A DNA stretch of 64,000 nucleotides, taken from positions 36,915 to 100,914 of the forward strand of contig NZ_JBQCCV010000125.1 in assembly GCF_051961875.1 (NCBI RefSeq), in the 5' to 3' direction. Each line of letters starts with the position of its first letter. Position 1 is the first letter of the stretch. The notes under the pieces were generated by a model, which was not told where the DNA came from, did no database searches, and saw nothing but the letters and a program-made list of their open reading frames with translations. The position numbers and the translations under genes are program-made. Below are positions 8,399 to 34,495 of this stretch, piece after piece. The stretch is from Intrasporangium sp. Lineage in GTDB: Bacteria > Actinomycetota > Actinomycetes > Actinomycetales > Dermatophilaceae.

Positions 8399-9336
8399 TG
8401 ACCACCGAACCCGCCTTCGTGATGGAACTGCCCGTCGGGAGTGTCGCGATCCACGACCTCACCGTCGGCACACCGGCCGACGACGCCCCGGTCGTGCTCG
8501 CCGTGCACGGCATCACCGCCAACGGCCTGTCCTGGCGTGAGGTGGCCGACGAGGTCGACCGTCGCCACGGCTCCGCGGTGCGCTTCCTCGCGCCCGACCT
8601 CCGAGGCCGGGCGGCGAGCGCCGCGGCGGCCGGTCCCTATGGGCTGCAGACGCACGTGGCCGACCTCGCCACGATCGCCTCCATCTTCGGGGCCCAGCCC
8701 GTGCTCGTCGGGCACTCGATGGGCGCCTTCATCGCCGGGCTCGCCGTCGCCACCCATCCCGATCGCTTCGCGGGAGCCGTCCTCGTCGACGGCGGCCTCG
8801 CCTTCCCGGCCCCCGAGGGGCTCGACATCGACGCGGCCCTCAAGGCCGTCATCGGCCCGGCTATGGACCGGTTGTCGATGCGGTTTGCCAGCCCCGCGGC
8901 ATACGTCGAGTTCTGGAGCGAGCACCCCGCGCTCGGGCCGGCGCTGCACGGCCCGGCGGGGGACGCCCTGCGCGCCTATCTCGAGCACGACCTCGTGCCC
9001 GCCGACGGGCAGTGGCGCAGCAGCTGCGTCATCGAGGCGGTCCGGGCCGACGGCGCCGACGTCCTCACCGACGCCGAGACCCACGGTGCCGTGGCACGCG
9101 CCGCCGCGGACGGCACCGGCATGGACTTCGTCTGGGCCCACCGCGGACTGCTCGACGAGGCCCAGGGCCTCTACGACAAGGACCGCCTCGCTGCCCTCGG
9201 CGTGCCGGACGAGGTCACCGTGCAGGACGTCGACGCGAACCACTACACGGTCATCCTGGAAGAGCCCGGCGTGACCGCGATCGCGGACGCGATCGACCGC
9301 CGGCTCGCGGCCGTCCCGCCCCTCAGCGAGGCGTGA
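8398..9336 (+). CDS. Alpha/beta fold hydrolase (esterase/lipase-like)
   Basis: TGATG coupling with the permease; HGITA oxyanion motif, DLRGR, nucleophile GHSMG, C-terminal NHYTV. Confidence 0.88.
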   Translation: MTTEPAFVMELPVGSVAIHDLTVGTPADDAPVVLAVHGITANGLSWREVADEVDRRHGSAVRFLAPDLRGRAASAAAAGPYGLQTHVADLATIASIFGAQPVLVGHSMGAFIAGLAVATHPDRFAGAVLVDGGLAFPAPEGLDIDAALKAVIGPAMDRLSMRFASPAAYVEFWSEHPALGPALHGPAGDALRAYLEHDLVPADGQWRSSCVIEAVRADGADVLTDAETHGAVARAAADGTGMDFVWAHRGLLDEAQGLYDKDRLAALGVPDEVTVQDVDANHYTVILEEPGVTAIADAIDRRLAAVPPLSEA

Positions 9337-11218
9337 GGAGCAGGTCCCGCAGGCGGAGGGCGAGCTGGATCTCGAGGGCGCGGTCGGGCCGCTGCCAGGT
9401 GTCCCCGAGCAGCGCCGAGATCCGCTCCAGCCGCTGGGAGACCGTGTTGACGTGCACGTGCAGCTGCCCGGCCGCATGGCGCGGGCTCGCACCCGCCGCG
9501 AAGTATGCCGTGAGCGTGCCGAGCAGGTCCGTCCCCCGGCGCTCGTCGTAGTCCACGATGGGGCCGAGCACCCGCTCGACGTACTCTCCGATGTCCGGCT
9601 CGGAGCTCACGATGAGCCCGGCGAACCCGAGCTCCGTCGCCGCGCCACCCATGCCCCGGCGTCCCAGCGCGAGGAGCGCCCGGACTGTCCGGACGCCCTC
9701 GGCATGCGCCTCCGGGACGGCCGTGACGCCGGTGATCGGCCCCACGCCCGCCACCGTGGTCTCCGAACGACGGCTCAGCAGGGCCGCCATCGACTTCGCC
9801 AGAGCATCGGGGTCCTCACCGGGCACCAGGGCCACGACCGCCCCGTCGTGGGCTCCGACGAGGGCGTCCTCGCCGGCCAGGGTGCTCGTCGAGAGCAGGA
9901 GGCTGCGCGTCGTCGTGCCGACATCCCCGCGGACCACGAGGAGGCAGAAGGGGCGGTGCGGGTCGAAGCCGGCCGACCGCGCCAGAGAGACCCGGTCGTC
10001 GACCGTCCCGCGGGGGCTGACGAGGTCGGAGACAAGGCGGTTGCGCTCCTGCTGACGTGAGTCGGCCGCCGCGCGCTCGAAGAGCAGGACGAGTGCCGTG
10101 ACGACCGCGGCGCGCTCCACGGTGCGACGGTCCGGATCGCTCAGTGACTCGACGCCGCCGACAAGGAGCGTGCCGAGCCGGTCGCGCATTGCGCTCACCG
10201 GAGCGACATAGACGCCGTCGACCTCGAAGAGCCGCCCCGTGCCCCAGGCCTCCTCGGTCGGCACGCCGAGGTCCTCGGGGACCGGCCCGGACTGGCTGCG
10301 CCGTTCGCCGGTCTCGTCGGCGAGCACCGCCCAGCCGCCCAGCAGCTCGGACAGCGACTTCGTGATGCCATCCACGCCGCCTCCCTCGAGGACGAGGGAG
10401 GCGAAGCGGTCGTGGGCCGCCGCAGCCTTCTCGACACCGGCGGCATACTGCCGGACCGTCTCGTGTGCTTGGGACAGGGCCTTCACGGCCTGCTCCGCGT
10501 CCGCCCGGGCGCGGGTCTGCACGAGGGTCACGGCGGCCAGCGTGGCGAGGCTGCCGAGGAGGGCGACCTCCTCGCGGGTGAACGGGCGGGGGGAACGGTT
10601 TGCGGCGAAGAGGACCCCGACGAAGTGCGACTCGACGATGAGCGGGGTGCCGCAGATCGCGATGATGCCCTCGTCGCCCACGCCGGAGTCGATGCTGGCC
10701 GTGTGGGCGAAGCGCTCGTCGTTCGTGTAGTCGGCCGTCCAGTACGGCTTGTGCGTCGAGGCGACGAGACCGCCGAGGCCGTCCCCGAGGGCGAGGCGGA
10801 GCGCCTGGAACCGTGCCGAGATCGAGCCGTCGGTGGCTCGCATGAAGGTGTCGCCGCGCTCCGGATCGTAGAGCGTGAGGTAGGCGAGGTCGGTCCGCAT
10901 GAGGATCCGGGCGCGACGGACGATCGCGTCGAGGACCCCGGCGGGGTCGCTCTCGGTCGCCAGCTCGCGGGCGATGTCGAGCAGGGCCGACAGTGCGGCT
11001 TCACGGTCGAGGTGTGCGTCGCGCTCGTGGGTGATCCGCAGCGCCAGCTCACGGGCCCTCGTCGGGGCGGGAGCTGCGACGACGTCACCGACCGAGGCAC
11101 CGGAGGCGACGAGGTCCAGCAGATGCAGCAGCTGGTCTCGTTCCTCAGCGTCCGGCACGGTGCCGATCCTAGGAGGGCCCGGGGTCACGGGGCGCGTGTG
11201 GTCGGGTCCGTCCGGCAT
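9323..11218 (-). CDS. GAF domain + PucR/CdaR C-terminal HTH transcriptional regulator
   Basis: GAF region (GDGLGGLVA..., VGVLFAANR); C-terminal TLTAYFAAG....AAGQLHVHVNTVSQRLERI. ATG overlaps the bdh stop. Confidence 0.88.
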   Translation of the reverse strand: MPDGPDHTRPVTPGPPRIGTVPDAEERDQLLHLLDLVASGASVGDVVAAPAPTRARELALRITHERDAHLDREAALSALLDIARELATESDPAGVLDAIVRRARILMRTDLAYLTLYDPERGDTFMRATDGSISARFQALRLALGDGLGGLVASTHKPYWTADYTNDERFAHTASIDSGVGDEGIIAICGTPLIVESHFVGVLFAANRSPRPFTREEVALLGSLATLAAVTLVQTRARADAEQAVKALSQAHETVRQYAAGVEKAAAAHDRFASLVLEGGGVDGITKSLSELLGGWAVLADETGERRSQSGPVPEDLGVPTEEAWGTGRLFEVDGVYVAPVSAMRDRLGTLLVGGVESLSDPDRRTVERAAVVTALVLLFERAAADSRQQERNRLVSDLVSPRGTVDDRVSLARSAGFDPHRPFCLLVVRGDVGTTTRSLLLSTSTLAGEDALVGAHDGAVVALVPGEDPDALAKSMAALLSRRSETTVAGVGPITGVTAVPEAHAEGVRTVRALLALGRRGMGGAATELGFAGLIVSSEPDIGEYVERVLGPIVDYDERRGTDLLGTLTAYFAAGASPRHAAGQLHVHVNTVSQRLERISALLGDTWQRPDRALEIQLALRLRDLLLTPR

Positions 11219-12006
11219 CAGTGGGCGGTCCAGCCGCCGTCCATCGTGAACGATGAGCCCGTCACGGACGCTGCCGCAGGCCCGCACAGGAAGAGGCTGA
11301 GGGCGGCGACCTCGCTCGGCTCGACCAGCCGCTTGACGGCAACGGGGGAGAGCATGACGGTCTCCACGACCTCGGACTCCGGGATGCCGTGCGTGACTGC
11401 CTGGTCGTGGATCTGCTTCTCGACGAGCGGTGTCCGGACGTAGGCGGGGTTGACGCAGTTGGACGTCACCCCGTGGGCCGCACCCTCGAGCGCGGTGACC
11501 TTGGACAGGCCCTCGAGTCCGTGCTTGGCGGTCACGTAGGCCGACTTGAACTCGCTCGCCCGCAGCCCGTGGACGCTGGAGACGTTGATGACCCGGCCCC
11601 ACCCTCGCGCGTACATGTGGGGGAGCGACTGCCGGATGAGCCGGAACGGCGAGGCGAGCATCAGGGCGATGATGAAGTCGAACTTCTCGAGCGGGAAGTC
11701 CTGGATCGGGGACACGTGCTGGATGCCCGCGTTGTTGACGAGGATGTCGATGTCGGTCGGCAGGGCGCCGAGGCCGTCGAGGTCTGACAGGTCCGCGACG
11801 ACCGGCTCGATGCCTGGTTCGCGCGTGAGCGCTTCGAGACCGGCCGCGTCGAGGTCGACGGCGTGGACCCGGGCGCCGGCGTGCGCGAGGGCCGTGGCGA
11901 TGGCCGCACCGATGCCGCTCGCCGCGCCCGTCACCAACGCGGTCCGGTTGCGAAGGTCGACCGTGTCGAGCGCGGGTAGGTGTGCGGAGAGGGGGGCGTC
12001 GGCCAT
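11218..12006 (-). CDS. bdh: 3-hydroxybutyrate dehydrogenase (SDR family)
   Basis: TGAASGIG, NNAGIQHVSPI..FP.EK, SVHGLRAS.FKSAYV.AKHG, VRTPLVEKQI. Confidence 0.9.
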   Translation of the reverse strand: MADAPLSAHLPALDTVDLRNRTALVTGAASGIGAAIATALAHAGARVHAVDLDAAGLEALTREPGIEPVVADLSDLDGLGALPTDIDILVNNAGIQHVSPIQDFPLEKFDFIIALMLASPFRLIRQSLPHMYARGWGRVINVSSVHGLRASEFKSAYVTAKHGLEGLSKVTALEGAAHGVTSNCVNPAYVRTPLVEKQIHDQAVTHGIPESEVVETVMLSPVAVKRLVEPSEVAALSLFLCGPAAASVTGSSFTMDGGWTAH

Positions 12007-12111: not shown

Positions 12112-12324
12112 GGCCCCCAACCTCCGCTGCATCCTCGTCAGATGTCGCGCCTTCGGCGACACTTCCTCGACTCCGCTGCGGCCGGGCGCCTCCCCTTGCC
12201 GCGCTTCCTCGACTCCGCTGCGGCCGGGCGCCTCGCAAGCTCGGCCCCCTACCTCCGCTACATCTTCGTCAGCACGGAGCAAGCTCGGCCCCCAACCTCC
12301 GCTGCATCCTCGTCAGATGTCGCG
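12112..12324. repeat. Mosaic of short direct repeats (REP/BIME-like)
   Basis: 38-bp exact repeat at 12112-12149 and 12287-12324, a degenerate copy at 12243-12272, and a 31-bp exact repeat at 12162-12192 and 12204-12234. Confidence 0.85.
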
Positions 12325-13863
12325 GAAGACCTCGACCGTCGCGCCCAGCGCATTAAGGCGCTCGGCCAGGTCCTCGTAGCCCCGGTTGATCACGTAGACG
12401 TTTCGGAGCACCGACGTGCCCGGTGTCGCGAGCATGGCGAGGAGGATCACGACGGCCGGGCGCAGCGCCGGCGGACAGCCCACCTCGGCGGCCCGCCAGC
12501 GCGTGGGCCCCTCGACGATGACGCGGTGCGGGTCGAGCAGCTGGACGCGCGCCCCGAGCTTGGTCAGCTCGGTGAGGTAGATGGCACGGTTCTCGTAGAC
12601 CCAGTCGTGGATCATCGTCGATCCCTGCGCCACCGCCCCGATGAGGGCGAAGAACGGCAGGTTGTCGATGTTGAGGCCTGGGAACGGCATCGGGTGGATC
12701 TTGTCGGTCGGTGCGTGCAGCGGGCCCGGGATCGTGGTCACGTCGACGAGACGGGTGCGGCCGTTGGCCGACCGGTACTCGTCCGAGATCCGGTACTTCA
12801 TCCCCATGCCCTCGAGGGTCGCCAGCTCGATCTCGATGAACTCGATCGGGACCCGCTCGATGGTGATCTCGGAGTCGGTGACGACGGCCGCGGCGATGAG
12901 GCTCATCGCCTCGATCGGGTCCTCGCTGGGGGAGTACTCGACGTCGACGTCGATGTCGGCGACGCCGGTGACGGTGAGCGTCGTCGTCCCGATGCCCTCG
13001 ATGGTGACGCCGAGCCTCTCCAGGAAGAAGCACAGGTCCTGGACCATGTAGTTGGGGCTCGCGTTGCGGATGATCGTGGTGCCGGGGTTGCGGGCGGCGG
13101 CCATGAGGACGTTCTCGGTGACCGTGTCGCCGCGCTCGGTGAGGATGATCGGGCGGGTCGGGCGGACCGAGGGATCGCAGGTGGCCTCGTAGGCGCCGTG
13201 GGTCGCCGTCACGTGGAGCCCGAAGTACCGGAGCGCCGCGAGGTGCGGCTCCACCGTGCGGGTGCCGAGGTCACAGCCCCCGGCGTACGGCAGCTTGAAG
13301 CTCGGGTGCTCGTGCAGGAGCGGCCCGAGGAACATGATGACCGTGCGGGTCCGGCGGGCCGCGTCGACGTCGATGGCCTCGAGGTCGAGGTGCTCGGGCG
13401 GCACGATCTCGAGGTCGTTGCTGTCCGGCAGCCACCGGGTGCGCACACCGATCGAGGCGAGGACCTCGAGGATCCGGTTGACCTCCTCGATCCGGGCGAG
13501 GTTGCGCAGCGTGGTGCGACCCCGGTTGAGCAGCGCGGCGCAGAGCAGGGCCACTGCCGCGTTCTTCGAGGTCTTGACGTCGATCGAGCCCGAGAGCTTG
13601 CGGCCACCGACGATGCGAAGGTGCTGCGCTCCTGGGTAGCCGACCGAGACGAACTCGGAGTCGAGCGCGTCACCGATCCGCGCGAGCATCTCGAGGCTCA
13701 TGTTCTGCTTGCCGGCCTCGATGCGGGTCACCGCACTCTGAGACGTGCCGAGCAGCTCGGCGAGCTCGGCCTGGGTGAGGCCCTTGTGGCGTCGGGCGTC
13801 CCGGATGAGGCCGCCGATCCGTTTCAGATAACGCTGATGTGGCACGGGGGAAGAGTAACTCAT
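12313..13863 (-). CDS. murA: UDP-N-acetylglucosamine 1-carboxyvinyltransferase with N-terminal XRE-family HTH domain
   Basis: N-terminal IRDARRHKGLTQAELAELLGTSQSAVTRIEAGKQNMSL, then MurA motifs SKNAA, GGCDLGTR, PFPGLNID, YENR. Confidence 0.9.
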   Translation of the reverse strand: MSYSSPVPHQRYLKRIGGLIRDARRHKGLTQAELAELLGTSQSAVTRIEAGKQNMSLEMLARIGDALDSEFVSVGYPGAQHLRIVGGRKLSGSIDVKTSKNAAVALLCAALLNRGRTTLRNLARIEEVNRILEVLASIGVRTRWLPDSNDLEIVPPEHLDLEAIDVDAARRTRTVIMFLGPLLHEHPSFKLPYAGGCDLGTRTVEPHLAALRYFGLHVTATHGAYEATCDPSVRPTRPIILTERGDTVTENVLMAAARNPGTTIIRNASPNYMVQDLCFFLERLGVTIEGIGTTTLTVTGVADIDVDVEYSPSEDPIEAMSLIAAAVVTDSEITIERVPIEFIEIELATLEGMGMKYRISDEYRSANGRTRLVDVTTIPGPLHAPTDKIHPMPFPGLNIDNLPFFALIGAVAQGSTMIHDWVYENRAIYLTELTKLGARVQLLDPHRVIVEGPTRWRAAEVGCPPALRPAVVILLAMLATPGTSVLRNVYVINRGYEDLAERLNALGATVEVFRDI

Positions 13864-13874
13864 ATATGAGTTAC
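13855..13874. promoter_or_regulatory. Perfect 20-bp palindrome over the HTH-murA start codon; candidate operator
   Basis: GTAACTCATA|TATGAGTTAC is self-complementary, AT-rich in a GC-rich background, and contains the ATG (13863-13861). Confidence 0.7.
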
Positions 13875-13896: not shown

Positions 13897-15153
13897 TCAG
13901 CCGGCGTGCGGGACGGGGTTCTCGTTGCTGGCGAGGGCGATGAGCGGCGCAGTGATCGTAACCTGCCACTCCCGGGCGCCCGCTGTCCGGAGCGCCTGGG
14001 CGACCTCCTCGGTCGTGGGCGCGGGCGGCGCCTCCCAGAGGTACCGGCGCAGCAGCTCAGGCGTCAGGAGGTTCTCGACCGGGACGGCGAGCTCCTCCGA
14101 CACCGCACCGATGAGCTCACGGGACCGCGCGAGCCGCGCCGCCGCGATCGGGTCGCGGTCTGCCCAGGACCGAGGTGGTGGTGGACCGGTGTGCGGCAGG
14201 TTGAGCTGCGGCAGCTCGTCCTCGCGGAGCGCGAAGGCGGCCCGGATGGCGTCGACGATCAGGTCCTCGTTGCGGCGGATCGACCGCGCGAGACGCGGCT
14301 CCTTCGACGCCACGGCGAGGGGCGGTCGGGTGTCGCGTTGGTGCTCGAGCGCGAGCTCCGCGATGGCGGCGTCCGGCAGGATCCGCCCGGGGGACACGTC
14401 GCGGCGCTGCGCCAGGGCGTCGCGGTCCTGCCACAGCTCTCGGACGATCGCGAGGCCGCGCCGGGTGCGCACCTTGTGCACTCCAGAAGTGCGCCGCCAC
14501 GGGTCCACTCGGGGCTCCGGACCCGTGAAGGAGAGCAGGTGGGAGAACTCCTGCCGAGCCCAGCCAAGCTTGCCCTGCCGCTCGAGGTCCTCCGCTACGG
14601 CGTCGCGAAGGTCACCGAGCACCTCGACGTCGAGGGCGGCATACCGCAACCACGGCTCGGGCAGTGGCCGTGAGCTCCAGTCGACCGCGCTGTGCTCCTT
14701 GGCGAGGCGGAAGCCGAGGTAGTGCTCCACCATGGCGCCGAGCCCGACGCGGGGCAGGCCCGCGAGGCGCCCGCCGAGCTCGGTATCGAAGAGCAGCCGG
14801 GGCCGCAGCCCGACCTCGGCGAGGCACACGAGGTCCTGGGTCGCGGCATGGAGGATCCACTCGCCGTCCCCGATCGCGGCATCGACGACGGTGAGGTCGG
14901 GGCAGGCGACGGGGTCGATGAGCCAGGTCCCCGACCCCTTGCGGCGCAGCTGCACGAGGTAGGCGTGCTGGCCGTAGCGGTAGCCGGAGGCCCGTTCGGC
15001 GTCGAGCCCGATGGGGCCGCGCCCGCAGCGCACCGCGTCGGCAGCCTCGGAAAGCCCGGACGGGTCGGAGACGATGTCGGGGACCCCCTCGACGGGAGCG
15101 GCGCGCAGCTCGAGCTGCTCCGAGACGCCCGTCGGCTGGTCGGCGCCACTCAC
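13897..15153 (-). CDS. rnd: Ribonuclease D (3'-5' exonuclease + HRDC domain)
   Basis: DAERASGYRYG, WILHAATQDL, FDTEL, WLRYAALDVE and HRDC region. GTG overlaps the DUF3000 stop. Confidence 0.9.
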   Translation of the reverse strand: MSGADQPTGVSEQLELRAAPVEGVPDIVSDPSGLSEAADAVRCGRGPIGLDAERASGYRYGQHAYLVQLRRKGSGTWLIDPVACPDLTVVDAAIGDGEWILHAATQDLVCLAEVGLRPRLLFDTELGGRLAGLPRVGLGAMVEHYLGFRLAKEHSAVDWSSRPLPEPWLRYAALDVEVLGDLRDAVAEDLERQGKLGWARQEFSHLLSFTGPEPRVDPWRRTSGVHKVRTRRGLAIVRELWQDRDALAQRRDVSPGRILPDAAIAELALEHQRDTRPPLAVASKEPRLARSIRRNEDLIVDAIRAAFALREDELPQLNLPHTGPPPPRSWADRDPIAAARLARSRELIGAVSEELAVPVENLLTPELLRRYLWEAPPAPTTEEVAQALRTAGAREWQVTITAPLIALASNENPVPHAG

Positions 15154-15734
15154 CGGCGCGGGCCCGGCAACGGGACGACGCCGTCGGGCAGTGGGGGGAT
15201 GCCGGCGATCGTGCAGAGCATGTCGCCCCATGCGCGCAGGTGGTCGGTGAGCGCCTCGTCCGTGGGGGTCCACGAGGCGCGGATCTCCATCTCGACGCTG
15301 GCGCCCCGGTCCGCGAGACCGCCGAAACCCTCGCTCACCACGCGGGTCACCGTGCCGGCCTCGGCGGTCCAGTGCAGGCCGCGTCCTTGGAGACCGTCGA
15401 CGAGCCAGGACCAGCCGACGGCACCGAGCATCGGGTCGGAGGCGAGCTCGGGCTCGAGCTCCGCACGGGCGAACGTGACGATCCGCCAGGCCCCGTCCCA
15501 GGCGTCCGGAAAGGACGGGTCGTGGAGCAGGACGAAGCGCCCGGTCGCGAGCTCGCCCTCGGGGTCGGTCGGGTCGAGCACGTCGCCGGTCAGCGCCGCC
15601 GCATGCGGGGCGATCCGGCTGGGCGCCGGAACCTCGGTGAGCCGCACCTCGGGACGCAGCCGCACATCGCGGAGGGCGGCCAGCACCCTCGCGAAATCCG
15701 CGCCGTGCGCGCCCGGCAGCGTCCTCGTGTGCAC
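15150..15734 (-). CDS. DUF3000 family protein
   Basis: LRPEV...[37 protein letters not shown]; usual position between rnd and hemE. Confidence 0.85.
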
Positions 15735-15740
15735 CTGACG

Positions 15741-15746
15741 AGGGTA
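15741..15746 (-). promoter_or_regulatory. -10 element (TACCCT) of a probable leaderless DUF3000 transcript
   Basis: TANNNT hexamer 6 nt upstream of the GTG at 15734; no SD sequence. Confidence 0.5.
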
Positions 15747-15826
15747 TGCCGCGCACCTCGGTTCTGTCCGGAGGCCACGCCGAGCGGGTGGCTCGGTGCG
15801 CTCCCCGCGCGTGGCAGGATGAGGCG

Positions 15827-16876
15827 GTGCCCTCACTAGCCCCTCCTCGTACCCGGTCCAGCGACCTCGTGCGTGCAGCCCGCCGCGAGCCGGTGTCGCG
15901 GACGCCGGTCTGGTTCATGCGTCAGGCCGGACGGTCCCTGCCCGAGTACCGGGCCGTCCGCGAGGGGACCACGATGCTCGAGGCCTGTACGCGCCCCGAG
16001 CTCGTCGCGGAGATCACCGTCCAACCGGTCCGGCGCCACGGCGTCGACGCGGCGATCTTCTTCAGCGACATCGTCGTGCCGCTCAAGGCGGTGGGACTCG
16101 ACCTCGACATCGTCGCCGGCGTGGGTCCGGTCGTCGCCGAGCCGATCCGCTCGCGCGCCGACCTCGACCGGCTGCCGGAGCTGACGAGTGAGCACGTCCC
16201 GTACATCACCGACGCGGTCCGGCTCCTCGTCGCCGAGCTCGGCGACACCCCGCTCATCGGGTTCGCCGGGGCACCGTTCACGCTCGCGTCCTACCTCGTG
16301 GAGGGCGGGCCGTCGAAGAACCACGTCCGCACCAAGGCGCTGATGCACGGCGACCCCGACCTGTGGCACGCGCTCTGCGATCGGCTGGCCCAGATCTCCG
16401 GCGCGTTCCTGCGTGTCCAGGCAGAGGCCGGCGCGAGCGTGGTCCAGCTCTTCGACTCCTGGGTCGGGGCGCTGTCGCGGGCCGACTACAGCCGCTACGT
16501 CCAGCCGCACTCGGCCAAGGCGCTCGCGGCCGTCGCCGACCTCGACGTCCCGCGGATCCACTTCGGCGTCGGCACCGGCGAGCTGCTCCCGCTCATGGGC
16601 GCCACGGGCGCCGAGGTCGTCGGCGTCGACTACCGGGTCAGTCTCACGGACGCGAGCGACCGGATCGGGCCCGACCACGCGGTGCAGGGCAACCTCGACC
16701 CGGCGCTGCTCTTCGCGCCCTGGGACGTGCTGCGCGACATCGTCGTCGACATCGTCGAGCAGGGACGGCGCACCCCCGGCCACATCTTCAACCTCGGCCA
16801 TGGAGTCCTGCCGGACGTCGACCCGGACGTCCTCACCCGCGTCACCGAGCTCGTCCACGAGGTGTCCACGCGCTGA
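15827..16876 (+). CDS. hemE: Uroporphyrinogen decarboxylase
   Basis: [40 protein letters not shown]. Confidence 0.96.
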
Positions 16877-18549
16877 TGGCCGGCGGGTCCCTCGCCCGAT
16901 CGAGCCTCGTCATGGTCGGCGGCTCCTTCGCGTCACGCGCCCTGGGCGTCGTGCGCGGGGCGCTGATGACGGCGATCATCGGCACCCTCGCCGCCGGTGA
17001 CGCCTTTGGGCTCGCCAACACCCTGCCCAACGTCCTCTACCTACTCGCCGCGGGCGGCATCCTCAACGCCGTCCTCGTCCCGGCGCTGTCGCGGGCCATG
17101 AAGCTCGAGGACGGTGGCCAGGAGTTCACGGACCGGGTCATCACGGTGGCCCTCACCGGGATGGCCGTCCTGACCGGCGTCATCATGCTCGGTGCCGGCT
17201 TCTTCGTCTGGCTCCTGAGCGGGGACCGGGGCCCGCAGTTCAGCAGCCTGGCGCTGGCCTTCACCCTGATGTGCCTGCCGCAGGTCTTCTTCTACGGCGT
17301 GTATGCCCTGCTCGGGCAGATCCTCAACGCCCGTGAGCGGTTCGGGGCCTTCGCCTGGGCGCCGTTCGTGGCGAACGTCGTCGCGATCGCGGGGCTCGTC
17401 GTCTTCATGGTCATCTACCCGGACCCGCACCAGGTCGACGGCGGTGGGCGGCGCCTGCCGCGGCCGCCCGAGGCGTGGACCGGCGGGATGATCTGGCTCT
17501 TCGCCGGCACGGCCACGCTGTCGGTGGTCGCCCAGGCGCTCTGGCTCGTCCCGGCGCTGCGCCGCGCCGGGTTCACATACCGGCCGCGGTGGGGCCTGCG
17601 CGGCGTCGGGCTGGGCGGGGTGAGCCGGCTCGCCCTCTGGGCCTTCGGCGGCCTGGCGGTGTCGCAGCTCGGCTTCTTCATCAACACCGCGGTCCTCAAC
17701 CACGCCGCGGGATTCGGCACGGCGAGCCACCCGATCCGCGGGCCACTGCTCTACCAGGTGGCCTTCACGATCTTCATGCTGCCGCACGCCTTCATCGCGG
17801 TCTCGATCATCACGGCGCTCTTCCCCCGCCTCTCCCGTGACGCGGCCGATGGAGACACGCCCGCCCTGCTCCGCGACTTCCGCCGGGGCCTGACGCTGCC
17901 GCTCGTTGCGAACCTGCCGGTCATGGTCTTCATGATCATCTGCGCGCGGCCGCTCGTCGCGCTGCTCAACCCCGGCATCGACACGGTGTCGATCGAGCTC
18001 GGCGGCTATGCCCTGACGGTCATGGTCCTCGGCATCATCCCGTTCGGCATCGACCTGCTCTGCTACCGGACCTTCTTCGCCCTCGACGACGGCCGGGCCC
18101 CTCTCCTCATGCAGGTCGTCCTGACCGGCGCGACTGCCGTCGCCGGCGTGCTGACCTACCTCGCGCCACCCCAGTGGGCGCTGGGCATCGTGGCCGCGGG
18201 CATGACCGTGGGCAACGTGCTCAGCTCGGGGACCGGCCTGGTGCTGCTCAGGCGCCGCCTCGGCCCGCTCGGCCTGACGCAGGTCCTGGTGTCGACAGCC
18301 CGGATCGGTGTCGCGGCCGTCGCCGCCGCCCTCCTCGGCGGTGGGGCCTTCGCCGTTGTCTCGCCCATCGTCGGCGACCTCGCCGAGATGAGCACGTGGC
18401 AGCGGGTCTTCGGCAACGGCCTCGTGCTGGCGCTGGCCGGACTCGTGTTCGTCGTGGTCTACCTCGGCGCCGCGGCGGTCCTGCAGGTCCCCGAGGTCCG
18501 TGAGGTGGCCGCACTCGCCCGCCGCAAGACCGTCCGCACCCGGCAATAG
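16876..18549 (+). CDS. murJ: Lipid II flippase MurJ/MviN family protein
   Basis: TGATG coupling with hemE; SRALG..R, AFGLANTLPN, GGILNAVLVP; many TM segments. Confidence 0.85.
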   Translation: MAGGSLARSSLVMVGGSFASRALGVVRGALMTAIIGTLAAGDAFGLANTLPNVLYLLAAGGILNAVLVPALSRAMKLEDGGQEFTDRVITVALTGMAVLTGVIMLGAGFFVWLLSGDRGPQFSSLALAFTLMCLPQVFFYGVYALLGQILNARERFGAFAWAPFVANVVAIAGLVVFMVIYPDPHQVDGGGRRLPRPPEAWTGGMIWLFAGTATLSVVAQALWLVPALRRAGFTYRPRWGLRGVGLGGVSRLALWAFGGLAVSQLGFFINTAVLNHAAGFGTASHPIRGPLLYQVAFTIFMLPHAFIAVSIITALFPRLSRDAADGDTPALLRDFRRGLTLPLVANLPVMVFMIICARPLVALLNPGIDTVSIELGGYALTVMVLGIIPFGIDLLCYRTFFALDDGRAPLLMQVVLTGATAVAGVLTYLAPPQWALGIVAAGMTVGNVLSSGTGLVLLRRRLGPLGLTQVLVSTARIGVAAVAAALLGGGAFAVVSPIVGDLAEMSTWQRVFGNGLVLALAGLVFVVVYLGAAAVLQVPEVREVAALARRKTVRTRQ

Positions 18550-18551
18550 CG

Positions 18552-19589
18552 TCAGTCCGCGGGATTCCCGGCAGCCGGACCAGGGGCGGTGGCGCGGCGG
18601 CGCACCCACCAGCGACGCCCGAGCACGCCGGCGACGAGCAGCAGGACGAGCCAGGGGAGCAGCACCGCGAGGCCGGTGACGATGACGGCGAGCGAGTCGA
18701 GCATGGCGGTCCAGGCCGCGTGCAGCTGGGCGACGAAGCCGCTCGTGGCCGGCGCGGGCTGGGTCGCGCTCGTCCAGAGGCTCACCGTCACGTCCGACGT
18801 CGTGGTGCGCCGCTCCAGCGTCGCGAGCCGACTCTCGAGCGAGTCAAGGTCCGCCTGTCGCCGGGTCACCTCGTTCTCGATCGCGATGATCTGCGACACG
18901 TTGGTGGCCTTGACCAGCAGGGCGCGGGCCTGCGCGACGGCGTCACGCATGGGACCGATCCGCGCCGACGTGTCGACGTAGCTGTCCGTCAGGTCCTCGC
19001 TCTCCGAGGACCGGTACGAGACCGTGCCGATCCGGGACAGCTCCGCCACGACACCGTCCAGCTTCTCGGCGGGAACCCGGACCGTGAGGCGTGCCTCGTT
19101 CACGGCGACCGCCGGCACCGACACACCCGCCCCGGACTCACTTGCCGGCGGCCCGCCGGTCGGGTCGGGTGCCGTGACGACGTTCTCCGAGAGCACCTGT
19201 CCACCAGCCGCGGCGGTGACCGACCGGACGCTGCCGCTCGCCGCAACGAGATCGGTCACCTTGATGCCGAGCCAGGCGGAGCGCGCCAGCTTGGGTCCGA
19301 CCACGGGAGCCGCGGCCGCACCGTTCGCCGACCCTTGCGAGAGGGTCGGCCCCGGTTTCGTCACATCGCCAGTGGTCCCCGGCGCGCCCTCCTGGCCCGC
19401 GCCCCCACCCAGTGCAGGCTGCCGCAGCGCTGGGGCGGAACCGCTACTGCTGCCGGCGCTGCTCGCATCCGAGCCCACCCGGAACTGCAGCCCGATGACG
19501 AACGCGACTGCGACGAGCACCACCACCGCCGCCGCCCATGTTGCGCGCGAGCGGGGCAAACCGCTCGGACCTCGACGGATGACGGTCAT
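18552..19589 (-). CDS. DUF4349 domain membrane protein
   Basis: N-terminal TM, RVPAE..LD, EDLTDSYVD, coiled-coil region, C-terminal TM LAVLLPW. Confidence 0.82.
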   Translation of the reverse strand: MTVIRRGPSGLPRSRATWAAAVVVLVAVAFVIGLQFRVGSDASSAGSSSGSAPALRQPALGGGAGQEGAPGTTGDVTKPGPTLSQGSANGAAAAPVVGPKLARSAWLGIKVTDLVAASGSVRSVTAAAGGQVLSENVVTAPDPTGGPPASESGAGVSVPAVAVNEARLTVRVPAEKLDGVVAELSRIGTVSYRSSESEDLTDSYVDTSARIGPMRDAVAQARALLVKATNVSQIIAIENEVTRRQADLDSLESRLATLERRTTTSDVTVSLWTSATQPAPATSGFVAQLHAAWTAMLDSLAVIVTGLAVLLPWLVLLLVAGVLGRRWWVRRRATAPGPAAGNPAD

Positions 19590-19690
19590 CGTCCTGCCTC
19601 CATCCCCGGGCGCCCTGTGGCGGCCCTTCACCCGTGCAGACACCGAGGGCGGCTCGATCGTTGCCCGGGCCCGGGTGAAAGAGTGGCGAC

Positions 19691-21076
19691 ATGAGTCTGC
19701 GTGTTGGGGTCGTCGGTGGTGGGATCAGCGGGCTCGCGGCGGCTTGGGAGCTGGTCCAGGCCGACCCCGGCACGTCGGTCACCGTCTTCGAGGGATCCCC
19801 GCAGCTCGGGGGTCGGCTCCGACGGGCCCCTGTGGCGGGGGCGCTCGTCGACGTCGGCGCAGAGTCGGTCCTCTTTCGACGTCCCGAGGCCGTCCAGCTC
19901 ATCAAGGAGCTCGGTCTGGGCGACCGGCTCACCCACCCCGCACCCGTCGGTGCCTCCATCGTGTCCGGCGGCGCGCGTTGGCCGATGCCGAAGGGGACCC
20001 TCATGGGCATCCCCGCCGACCCCGACTCCGTCTCCGGGCTGCTCAGCCCCGCGGAGGTGGAGCGGGCCCGCCACGAGGTCATCACCGGCCCCACCGGCGG
20101 GGATGTGGCGATCGGCCGACTCGTCGAGGAGCGGCTCGGTCCCGCGGTCACGGACAAGCTCGTCGAGCCACTCCTGGCGGGCGTGTACGCCGGTCACTCC
20201 CGCGCCATCTCCGCCGAGTCGGCCGTCCCCAGCCTGTATGCCGCTGGGCTGGCCGGGACGTCCCTCCTCGAGGCCGCGCGTGAGGCGGTCGCGCCGTCGC
20301 AGGGCGCCACGGCCGACCCGCGTCCGGTGTTCGCCACGCTCCAGGGCGGGCTCGGCTCGCTGCCGGGCCTGCTCGCCGAGGCGCTGGTCGCCAAGGGCGT
20401 CGAGATCCACCTGGGGACGATGGTCCGCCGGCTGAGCGGCGGTCCGGGCGCCTGGACCCTCACGACCGGGCCGACGATCGACGAGGTGAGCTGGACCTTC
20501 GACCGGGTCCTCGTCGCCACTCCCGGCGCACCGGCCGCCCGGCTACTCCGGACCGTCGCGCCCGACGCGGCGGCCCCGCTCTCGAGGATCGACTACGCCT
20601 CGATGGCGATCGTCACCTTCGCCTTCCCCGGACCGGTCGACGAGCCGTTCGCCGGCAGCAGCGGGTTCCTCGTGCCACCGACCGAGCCGCTCTCGATCAA
20701 GGCCTCGACGTTCAGCTCGGTCAAGTGGCCGTGGCTCGCCGAGACACGGCCGGACCTCACCTTCGTCCGGGCCTCGCTCGGTCGGCACGGGGAGGAGGCG
20801 ACGCTGCAGCGACCCGACGCCGAGCTGGCGCGCCTGGCGCTCGCCGACCTCGGCCACGTCCTCGGCGTCGCCCTGCCCGCCCCCGTCGACGTGCACGTCC
20901 AGCGCTGGGGCGGCGGCCTGCCGCAGTACGGCGTCGGGCACCGCGGGCTCGTCGGCGAGGTACGAGCGGGCCTGCCACCCACGCTGGAAGCAAGCGGGGC
21001 GGCATACGACGGGGTCGGGATCCCTGCGTGCATCGGGTCCGGGCGAGCGGCAGCCCGCCGGCTGCTCACCGGATGA
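19691..21076 (+). CDS. hemY: Protoporphyrinogen/coproporphyrinogen oxidase (HemY)
   Basis: [43 protein letters not shown]. Confidence 0.93.
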
Positions 21077-33721: not shown

Positions 33722-34495
33722 ATGGCTGCACAAACTAAGATCGTCGTCGGAGTGTTGGGTGGATACCTGCTCGGACGCACCAAGAAGTTCCGCCTCGCCC
33801 TGACCCTGGGGAGCATGCTCGCCGGCCAGCGGCTCGTGAACAACCGAGAGGACCTGCTGGCACAGGGCTCGAAGCTCCTCGAAGGCAATCCACAGCTCAA
33901 GGCGTTGCAGAGCCAGCTCACGGGCCGGCTCGTCGACGTCGCCCGCGAGGCTGCGCTCGTCGCTGTGGCGACGAGGGTCGAGGCGCTGACGAAGTCGATC
34001 CAGCCCCGGCAGAAGTCGGGGGCCGGCGAGGGCGAGGAGCAGGGTGGCGAATCGGGTTCACCGATCGACACTCTGACGAAGTCGCTCCCGGGGCGCGGGC
34101 GGGGTCCGGAAGCGGAGTCGCAGAAAGGGCAGGCCGAAGGCGACGAGGCGGAGGAGCAGCCCGAGCAACAGGCCGACGAACGGATGGGGGACGAGGAGGA
34201 GTCTGACGAGGCGGACGACCGGATGGGCGGCCGGGACGAGACCGACCAGATGGGGGACCAGGACGAGTCCGAGGAGACGGACGAAGCCGCCGGCGGTCGC
34301 GCGGACAGCGACGAGGGTGACCGTGCCGGGCAGAGCGGCTCGTCGGGATCGGGCTTCGGCGGCTCCCCTTCACAGTCGACCCCCTCGACCAAGAAGACTG
34401 CGGCGAAGGCCGCAAAGGCCGCCAAGGGCATGCCCGGCAGGTCCGGCAAGCGGTCGCCGGCACCCCGTACACGAGCAGGGAGGTCAGGGTCATGA
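33722..34495 (+). CDS. Gas-vesicle-cluster-associated protein (GvpY-like) with acidic low-complexity tail
   Basis: GGYLLGRTKKFRLAL N-terminus as recalled for Streptomyces gvp-cluster proteins; D/E-rich region and KKTAAK tail. Confidence 0.65.
   Translation: MAAQTKIVVGVLGGYLLGRTKKFRLALTLGSMLAGQRLVNNREDLLAQGSKLLEGNPQLKALQSQLTGRLVDVAREAALVAVATRVEALTKSIQPRQKSGAGEGEEQGGESGSPIDTLTKSLPGRGRGPEAESQKGQAEGDEAEEQPEQQADERMGDEEESDEADDRMGGRDETDQMGDQDESEETDEAAGGRADSDEGDRAGQSGSSGSGFGGSPSQSTPSTKKTAAKAAKAAKGMPGRSGKRSPAPRTRAGRSGS

Follow-up and report, generated by a model that had tools for sequence, protein, structure and literature searches.

A helix-turn-helix domain fused to a second MurA, with a conserved palindrome at its leaderless promoter: a candidate self-repressing cell-wall enzyme from Intrasporangium

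The trigger enzymes, or enzyme-repressors, PutA, BirA and NadR carry an enzyme and a DNA-binding domain in one polypeptide and act on the promoter of their own pathway. Fosfomycin targets MurA, the enzyme of the committed step in peptidoglycan synthesis, and bacterial control of the MurA level is known mostly as proteolysis and protein partners. The gene described here lies in 64,000 nucleotides of DNA from Intrasporangium sp. (contig NZ_JBQCCV010000125.1, positions 36,915 to 100,914), referred to below as the window, and encodes an XRE-type helix-turn-helix (HTH) domain joined to a complete MurA, with a perfect 20-bp palindrome at its promoter. It is most likely a variant of the enzyme-repressor type, built on a known but superficially studied gene, murA2. 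Measured against the definition of a trigger enzyme (an enzyme with DNA binding at a promoter of its pathway), the architecture and the operator position match, as far as can be read from sequence alone. The fusion differs from PutA, BirA and NadR in that its DNA-binding domain is of the XRE type and not a ribbon-helix-helix or winged helix, its sole predicted target in the genome of the window is its own gene, and its ligand dependence is something that we infer. By sequence, the HTH domain matches the XRE autoregulators C.AhdI (1y7y), ClgR (3f51) and HipB (8ezt), and, as with these, a palindromic operator overlaps its own core promoter; those proteins are small and stand-alone or partner-paired, whereas the HTH of the fusion is covalently joined to an enzyme of 430 amino acids (aa). 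With canonical MurA (E. coli and Enterobacter cloacae) the fusion shares the two-lobed fold (template modelling (TM) scores of 0.91–0.94) and the catalytic Lys, Arg, Cys-loop and Asp, but it adds the N-terminal DNA-binding domain and a family-specific insertion, scores below the equivalog cut-off and co-exists with a housekeeping MurA having Asp at the Cys115 position. The features of the gene and its promoter are as follows.

12313..13863, minus strand: HTH-MurA2 open reading frame as first listed, 516 aa
12313..13845, minus strand: revised HTH-MurA2 coding sequence, 510 aa, GTG start, TGA stop at 12313-12315
13657..13806, minus strand: XRE-type HTH_3 domain (PF01381), with the recognition-helix motif TSQSAVTRIEAGKQN
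12328..13626, minus strand: complete MurA (enolpyruvyl transferase) domain (NF006873, TIGR01072, Foldseek)
13273..13275, minus strand: TGT codon of the active-site loop Cys (equivalent of E. coli Cys115, the fosfomycin target), aligned to the GGC loop of MurA structures
13855..13874, no strand assigned: palindrome GTAACTCATATATGAGTTAC, perfect over 20 bp, at about -29 to -10; predicted to be the operator that a dimer of the protein binds through its own HTH
13852..13857, minus strand: -10 hexamer TACTCT (TANNNT), sharing the last 3 bases of the palindrome
13843..13845, minus strand: GTG, the start codon and predicted start of transcription, placed 6 nt downstream of TACTCT; the ortholog is leaderless
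13846..13863, minus strand: 18 nt read as codons 1-6 by the first-pass annotation and by some 516-aa database entries, most likely untranscribed promoter DNA

The first-pass annotation, made from the letters of the window, had recognised an XRE HTH joined to a full MurA, and the domain searches agreed. In the 516-aa numbering, HTH_3 (PF01381) was found at aa 20–69 with 50.3 bits (Pfam gathering cut-off of 23) and the EPSP_synthase/MurA domain at aa 86–503, while the C-terminal 430 residues belong to the MurA subfamily NF006873 (323.5 bits against an NCBIfam cut-off of 297). The recognition-helix residues S35, Q36, A38, R41, E43, G45, Q47 and N48 are invariant down to relatives of 32–38% identity. 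The AlphaFold (AF2) model, with a predicted local distance difference test (pLDDT) value of 88.4, shows a helical HTH at residues 2–61, a low-confidence linker at 62–74 and a full MurA fold.

Sequence identity and layout mark the gene as orthologous to Streptomyces murA2 (SCO5998; sven5810 / vnz_28735), with 73–76% identity over aa 12–516, the same architecture and the same arrangement of operator and -10 box. The Streptomyces proteins, like that of the window, consist of HTH and MurA (509–510 aa) and have the palindrome, the -10 box and the leaderless layout. Streptomyces murA2 is divergent from aconitase, as seen for the HTH+MurA gene at locus L063 and for SCO5998/SCO5999, whereas the window gene follows an RNase D-like gene. 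About 13 nt upstream of the palindrome, the Streptomyces loci also bear the BldM-WhiI site TCACCCGAAyGG; it links them to sporulation, and the window has no clear copy of it. The conserved TCACCCGAAyGG is matched, in reverse, by the published BldM-WhiI motif TGnnCCGnnCGGGTGA, and the BldM-WhiI heterodimer has been footprinted at murA2, its target during late sporulation (PMC4125116). The belief that the system was uncharacterised thus held in part: the ortholog already has a name and a place as a developmental target, but no description of the HTH domain or of the palindrome of MurA2 was found in the literature searched, in which MurA2 is treated as a second MurA.

The palindrome GTAACTCATATATGAGTTAC lies exactly at 13855–13874, as had been reported, and occurs once in the window against an expectation of 0. 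Perfect 20-bp palindromes number 33 in the 4.0-Mb genome (17 after shuffling), and only two of them are AT-rich, GTAACTCATATATGAGTTAC being one. The other, GTATCTTGATATCAAGATAC, is found outside the window at contig C213:6031-6050 and probably serves another regulator as its operator. The conservation of the site was evaluated over 81 upstream regions, comprising the window and 80 ortholog loci (Dermatophilaceae, Streptomyces, Nonomuraea, Kitasatospora and a metagenome-assembled genome (MAG) of Acidimicrobiia). About 70 of them had an A/T-flanked core CTCA-N4-TGAG directly upstream of the gene, and the operator consensus, WWCTCA-N4-TGAGWW, is conserved from Dermatophilaceae to Streptomyces. 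The looser pattern WWMTCA-N4-TGAKWW occurred exactly once in 69 loci (most of about 7.5 kb), always directly upstream of the gene. Information content showed a sharp peak over the palindrome and the -10 positions, with flanks near zero. The palindrome is kept across four neighbourhoods: after rnd (window), divergent from aconitase (Streptomyces), divergent from murA-murB (L084) and at an operon promoter (L087). It was not found upstream of the canonical murA of the same genome, nor at HTH-less MurA2-like genes (44–53% identical; behind a tRNA gene or rpsR). An alignment of ortholog upstream regions with HTH-less genes as controls, which the first-pass annotation had proposed, therefore came out in favour of a cognate operator tied to the XRE gene, as orthologs and distant relatives carry the motif and HTH-less relatives do not.

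The position of the palindrome relative to the gene had to be revised. It had been thought to lie over the start codon, with an ATG inside it (13863); most of the 120 best homologs, however, are 509–510 aa long and begin six or seven residues after the 516-aa start. When 71 ortholog upstream regions were anchored on the palindrome (66 distinct sequences), a TANNNT hexamer was found in all 66, in a fixed register one base past the right-arm TGAG, and an in-frame ATG or GTG followed 6–8 nt past this -10 box in 62. The A and the final T of the box are conserved beyond what the symmetry of the palindrome demands. In the window the order is TACTCT (13857–13852), the spacer TCCCCC and GTG (13845–13843). 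A -10 box, a short spacer and a start codon make up the standard layout of actinobacterial leaderless genes. In the close relatives Terrabacter L005 and Intrasporangium MAG L017 the palindrome ATG is directly followed by TAG, and Streptomyces operators have no ATG at the matching position. The ATG at 13863 was rejected as a start codon on the ortholog lengths, this ATG-TAG and the conserved GTG after the -10 box; read from these alignments, the start is GTG 13845 (510 aa) and the mRNA is predicted to be leaderless. If the start codon is taken as the 5' end of the transcript, the palindrome occupies the -35/-10 spacer and runs into the -10 box, a classic position for a repressor site. The gap of 33 bp that had been described becomes one of 51 bp that contains the leaderless promoter, while the reported lack of a Shine-Dalgarno sequence stands and would be explained by the leaderless mRNA. 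The gene start is thereby corrected for a genus in which some database entries (e.g., P0005) are over-extended to 516 aa from the palindrome ATG.

Transcript data bear on the ortholog. Supplementary Data 2 of PMC4895711 lists SCO5998 (murA2, 6573186-6574715, 1530 nt) as a gene with a leaderless transcript. The gene had no entry in a second transcription-start paper, and RNA-seq contigs 95–99% identical to the Streptomyces rimosus locus L043 were long assemblies, uninformative on the 5' end. No RNA runs were found for the organism of the window, its sequence being met only in DNA runs of soil and rhizosphere metagenomes.

The palindrome could instead serve another regulator, act as an RNA hairpin in a leadered transcript, mark the end of the rnd transcript, or hold the true start in its ATG. 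The 516-aa entries, the upstream promoters known in Streptomyces and the hairpin that could form if the palindrome were transcribed speak for this group of explanations, but it is very improbable, as the palindrome stays with the gene for the HTH protein in four unrelated neighbourhoods and is missing where relatives have no HTH, its specific bases are invariant beyond mere pairing, close relatives have TAG directly after the ATG, and the ortholog is leaderless. A terminator of the upstream rnd was rejected, since no U-tract follows the palindrome and the palindrome accompanies the HTH gene into other neighbourhoods.

Autorepression of the gene through its own HTH at the palindrome is, on the whole, probable. 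Two copies of the fusion protein would bind the palindrome as a dimer through their HTH domains, and the bound dimer would occlude the -10 region, block RNA polymerase and repress the leaderless murA2 promoter. The level of the second MurA would thus be held in check, with only its own gene regulated in the genome of the window; in Streptomyces, the same autorepression would oppose BldM-WhiI activation from the adjacent upstream site. The first-pass suggestion of self-regulation through the palindrome is strongly supported by the conservation of the site in orthologs across the four neighbourhoods and by the negative controls. Its further suggestion, that other genes might be regulated as well, did not survive the genome scans. 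With a symmetrised weight matrix built from 41 distinct sites, the window site scored 33.2 bits in the 4.0-Mb genome and the next best match 12.6 bits; shuffled genomes reached 11–21 bits and held as many weak matches as the real one. A wider regulon therefore gained no support, with one site at 33.2 bits and the rest within the shuffle range. Of 30 relatives scanned, 20 have the fusion gene, and in 13 of these the strict motif lies beside it; extra copies (0–3 per genome) were no commoner than in relatives without the gene. Six further genomes (four Streptomyces, one Terrabacter and one Nostocoides; three complete chromosomes) each had the site at murA2, plus 0–2 other matches with unrelated centres that were not conserved. 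An operator found once in the genome implies self-regulation but no regulon, and the HTH looks like a dedicated autoregulator. Relative G011 has a further copy of the strict pattern within the stretch that codes for the HTH (C121:9873-9888, ATCTCAGCCTTGAGAT), where it encodes N-L-S-L-E-M; this copy is probably due to chance.

Several observations weigh against simple autorepression. In the other seven of the 20 fusion-bearing relatives the strict motif is not beside the gene (three have none genome-wide and four have it only elsewhere), and at a few ortholog loci the arms are degenerate or the motif is unrecognisable. MurA enzymes are usually monomers, whereas the palindrome needs a dimer. Neither binding, reporter nor enzyme data for any family member were found in the literature searched. 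Streptomyces murA2 has BldM-WhiI as a further upstream regulator, a SigB-dependent promoter (PMC8346170) and a predicted DmdR1 site (PMC12161575), and its overexpression gave no exploration phenotype (PMC11005364). Upstream promoters would transcribe the palindrome, so that in Streptomyces the leaderless promoter would not be the only route to expression.

In alignments of the MurA half to relatives and to solved MurA structures, counterparts of E. coli K22, R91, C115, R120, D305, R371 and R397 were all present, so the catalytic positions had rightly been called retained; in the 516-aa numbering these include K100 (SKNAA), R173, C197 (GGCDLG), R202, D400 (NIDN), the ENR motif and the arginine of ALRPA, a motif that had been noted as divergent and still has this residue. 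The loop Cys is conserved in actinobacterial orthologs and in HTH-less relatives, D394 and R420 are at least 90% conserved in 19 actinobacterial members (74–87% identity), and the residues contacting UDP-GlcNAc (uridine diphosphate N-acetylglucosamine) are kept. The fold is the two-domain inside-out alpha/beta barrel of MurA crystal structures (Foldseek, 1uae, 3swd, 7tb0 and others, with the TM scores given above). The domain is probably an active UDP-GlcNAc enolpyruvyl transferase. A canonical MurA is encoded outside the window at contig C9:1744-2994 (TIGR01072, 507.7 bits; 33% identical to the fusion), and HTH-MurA2 is therefore a paralogue. The canonical protein has Asp in place of the loop Cys (VPGGDAIGSR), and only the HTH-fused paralogue keeps the Cys; Asp-type MurA is fosfomycin-insensitive, as in mycobacteria. 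The canonical murA also looks leaderless (TAGGGT, 7 nt, GTG).

A different substrate has to be considered for the enzyme. The fusion could be an enolpyruvyl transferase for another acceptor (NikO-like or glycopolymer-modifying), with the same self-regulation and without feeding peptidoglycan. Its identity to the genome's own MurA is just 33%, the family has a specific insertion, YxxxNGRTxLVD, as well as NYMVQDLC motifs, and NikO is a recognisable structural neighbour. MurA structures nevertheless beat NikO both by sequence (about 1e-54 to 1e-32 versus 9e-22) and by fold (TM 0.87–0.94 versus 0.83–0.85), which, together with the retained UDP-GlcNAc contacts and a distant relative placed among murA, murB and ddl, makes another acceptor rather improbable.

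The wider family was surveyed with 50%-identity cluster representatives, and three states were found. In the first, both halves are intact; this is the actinobacterial type, with a representative (P0125) that is 74% identical to the fusion and keeps the catalytic residues examined. In the second, the HTH is intact and the catalytic site degraded. The seven distant representatives that bear an HTH (32–38% identical) all keep its motif TSQSAxxRIExGxQN, and none retains the R91 position or the GGC loop; R120 and R397 are also gone from most, and four have another residue in place of the K22 lysine. In the third, the HTH is absent or degenerate and the catalytic residues are kept, as in the HTH-less representatives (44–53% identical), which are found in housekeeping gene contexts. 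P0132 (529 aa, on a metagenome contig, 45% identical) keeps all the MurA catalytic residues and has lost the TSQSA recognition-helix motif, a decay path opposite to that of the pseudoenzyme relatives. Three genes of the second type were examined in context. The L084 gene is divergent from a real murA-murB, followed by ddl, and its 60-bp intergenic region (L084 1441-1500) reads TTGACA-ATAT-ATCATATATGAT-ATTAAAT-N7-ATG; a second has ATATCAGATATGATATAAT immediately before its start; the third closes a NUDIX / nucleotidyl-transferase operon, the promoter of which has ATATCATATAGGATATATAAT. Distant low-GC relatives thus carry a related form of the operator, ATATCA-N4-TGATAT.

Even where catalysis has been lost, the type of operator and its place in the promoter spacer persist, so DNA binding would be the constant function and the MurA fold can be a sensor; the degraded catalytic site of the distant HTH-bearing relatives, one of them divergent from murA-murB, likewise suggests that the fold acts as a sensor. 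These relatives could mean that the protein is mainly a transcription factor even in Actinobacteria, its MurA fold being a non-catalytic sensor of the UDP-sugar/phosphoenolpyruvate (PEP) pool. The canonical MurA elsewhere in the genome points the same way, as does the score of the fusion against the TIGR01072 murA equivalog (306.9 bits, cut-off 392.7), which weighs against ordinary MurA activity. Set against this are the catalytic residues kept in the window protein, P0125 and P0132, the constancy of D394 and R420 among the actinobacterial members, and the HTH-less clade members that keep these residues in housekeeping contexts, and the explanation is considered unlikely.

An active, self-repressing enzyme might still respond to its own ligands; the first-pass annotation had suggested UDP-GlcNAc/PEP or fosfomycin. 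The ligand state of MurA (UDP-GlcNAc, PEP or UDP-N-acetylmuramic acid (UDP-MurNAc)) could tune DNA binding. MurA closes on UDP-GlcNAc and binds UDP-MurNAc tightly, as in structures 3swd and 8d84, which are among the Foldseek matches. Such ligand-switched DNA binding through the MurA domain is a conjecture, plausible though less likely than not. The broader proposal is held just as tentatively: that the MurA fold may directly sense the peptidoglycan-precursor pool (UDP-GlcNAc, UDP-MurNAc or PEP) and allosterically switch the attached XRE repressor, as an enzyme dosing itself in Actinobacteria and as a pseudoenzyme on the shared murA-murB promoter in distant low-GC lineages.

The distribution of the fusion is patchy. 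It was found in 18 of the 19 genomes of the window's family, Dermatophilaceae (the family being taken from the names on the closest homologs and loci), in two of 11 other families of the same order, and in seven of 201 genomes (four of 147 genera) in an even sample of the phylum. The protein is nevertheless 73–76% identical between Dermatophilaceae and Streptomyces. The second MurA of an actinobacterial group that includes the antibiotic-producing Streptomyces comes with what appears to be a repressor domain of its own and an operator at a precise position, and the pattern points to a direct transcriptional feedback loop, overlooked although murA2 is a model developmental promoter. Were the sensor proposal true, these proteins would form a family of one-component regulators, so far uncharacterised, that act on the committed cell-wall step, and the pseudoenzyme relatives near murA-murB would be a natural experiment on an enzyme fold becoming a metabolite sensor. 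The prediction of autorepression is readily testable, as it involves a single protein, a single 20-bp site and few candidate ligands.

The neighbouring genes in the window, assigned with Pfam where so marked, are listed below.

13897-15918, minus strand: RNase D-like open reading frame upstream of murA2 (3'-5' exonuclease, HRDC and exoN domains; Pfam)
11218-12006, minus strand: short-chain dehydrogenase, downstream of murA2 (Pfam)
9323-11602, minus strand: PucR-type regulator with GAF and GGDEF-like domains, downstream of murA2 (Pfam)
domain from about 16970 to 18549, plus strand: MurJ-family lipid II flippase homolog, 3 kb from murA2
15746-16876: hemE (URO-D), flanking the MurJ homolog
18552-19643, minus strand: DUF4349 gene, between the MurJ homolog and the HemY-like gene
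19691-21076: amine-oxidase/HemY-like gene, flanking the MurJ homolog on the other side

The RNase D-like reading frame has a 280-residue Arg/Pro-rich N-terminal extension without a domain, and the listed ATG probably lies far upstream of the true start. On the other side of murA2, the spacer to the short-chain dehydrogenase gene (about 300 bp; window 12112-12320, minus strand) is built of local repeats, in which Tandem Repeats Finder reported nothing. The last 8 nt of murA2 together with the 26 nt downstream (ACATCTGACGAGGATGCAGCGGAGGTTGGGGGCC) recur exactly at 12112-12145, and GAGGCGCCCGGCCGCAGCGGAGTCGAGGAAG is present twice. Arrays related to these repeats were found on contigs C74 (about 34240-34430) and C104.

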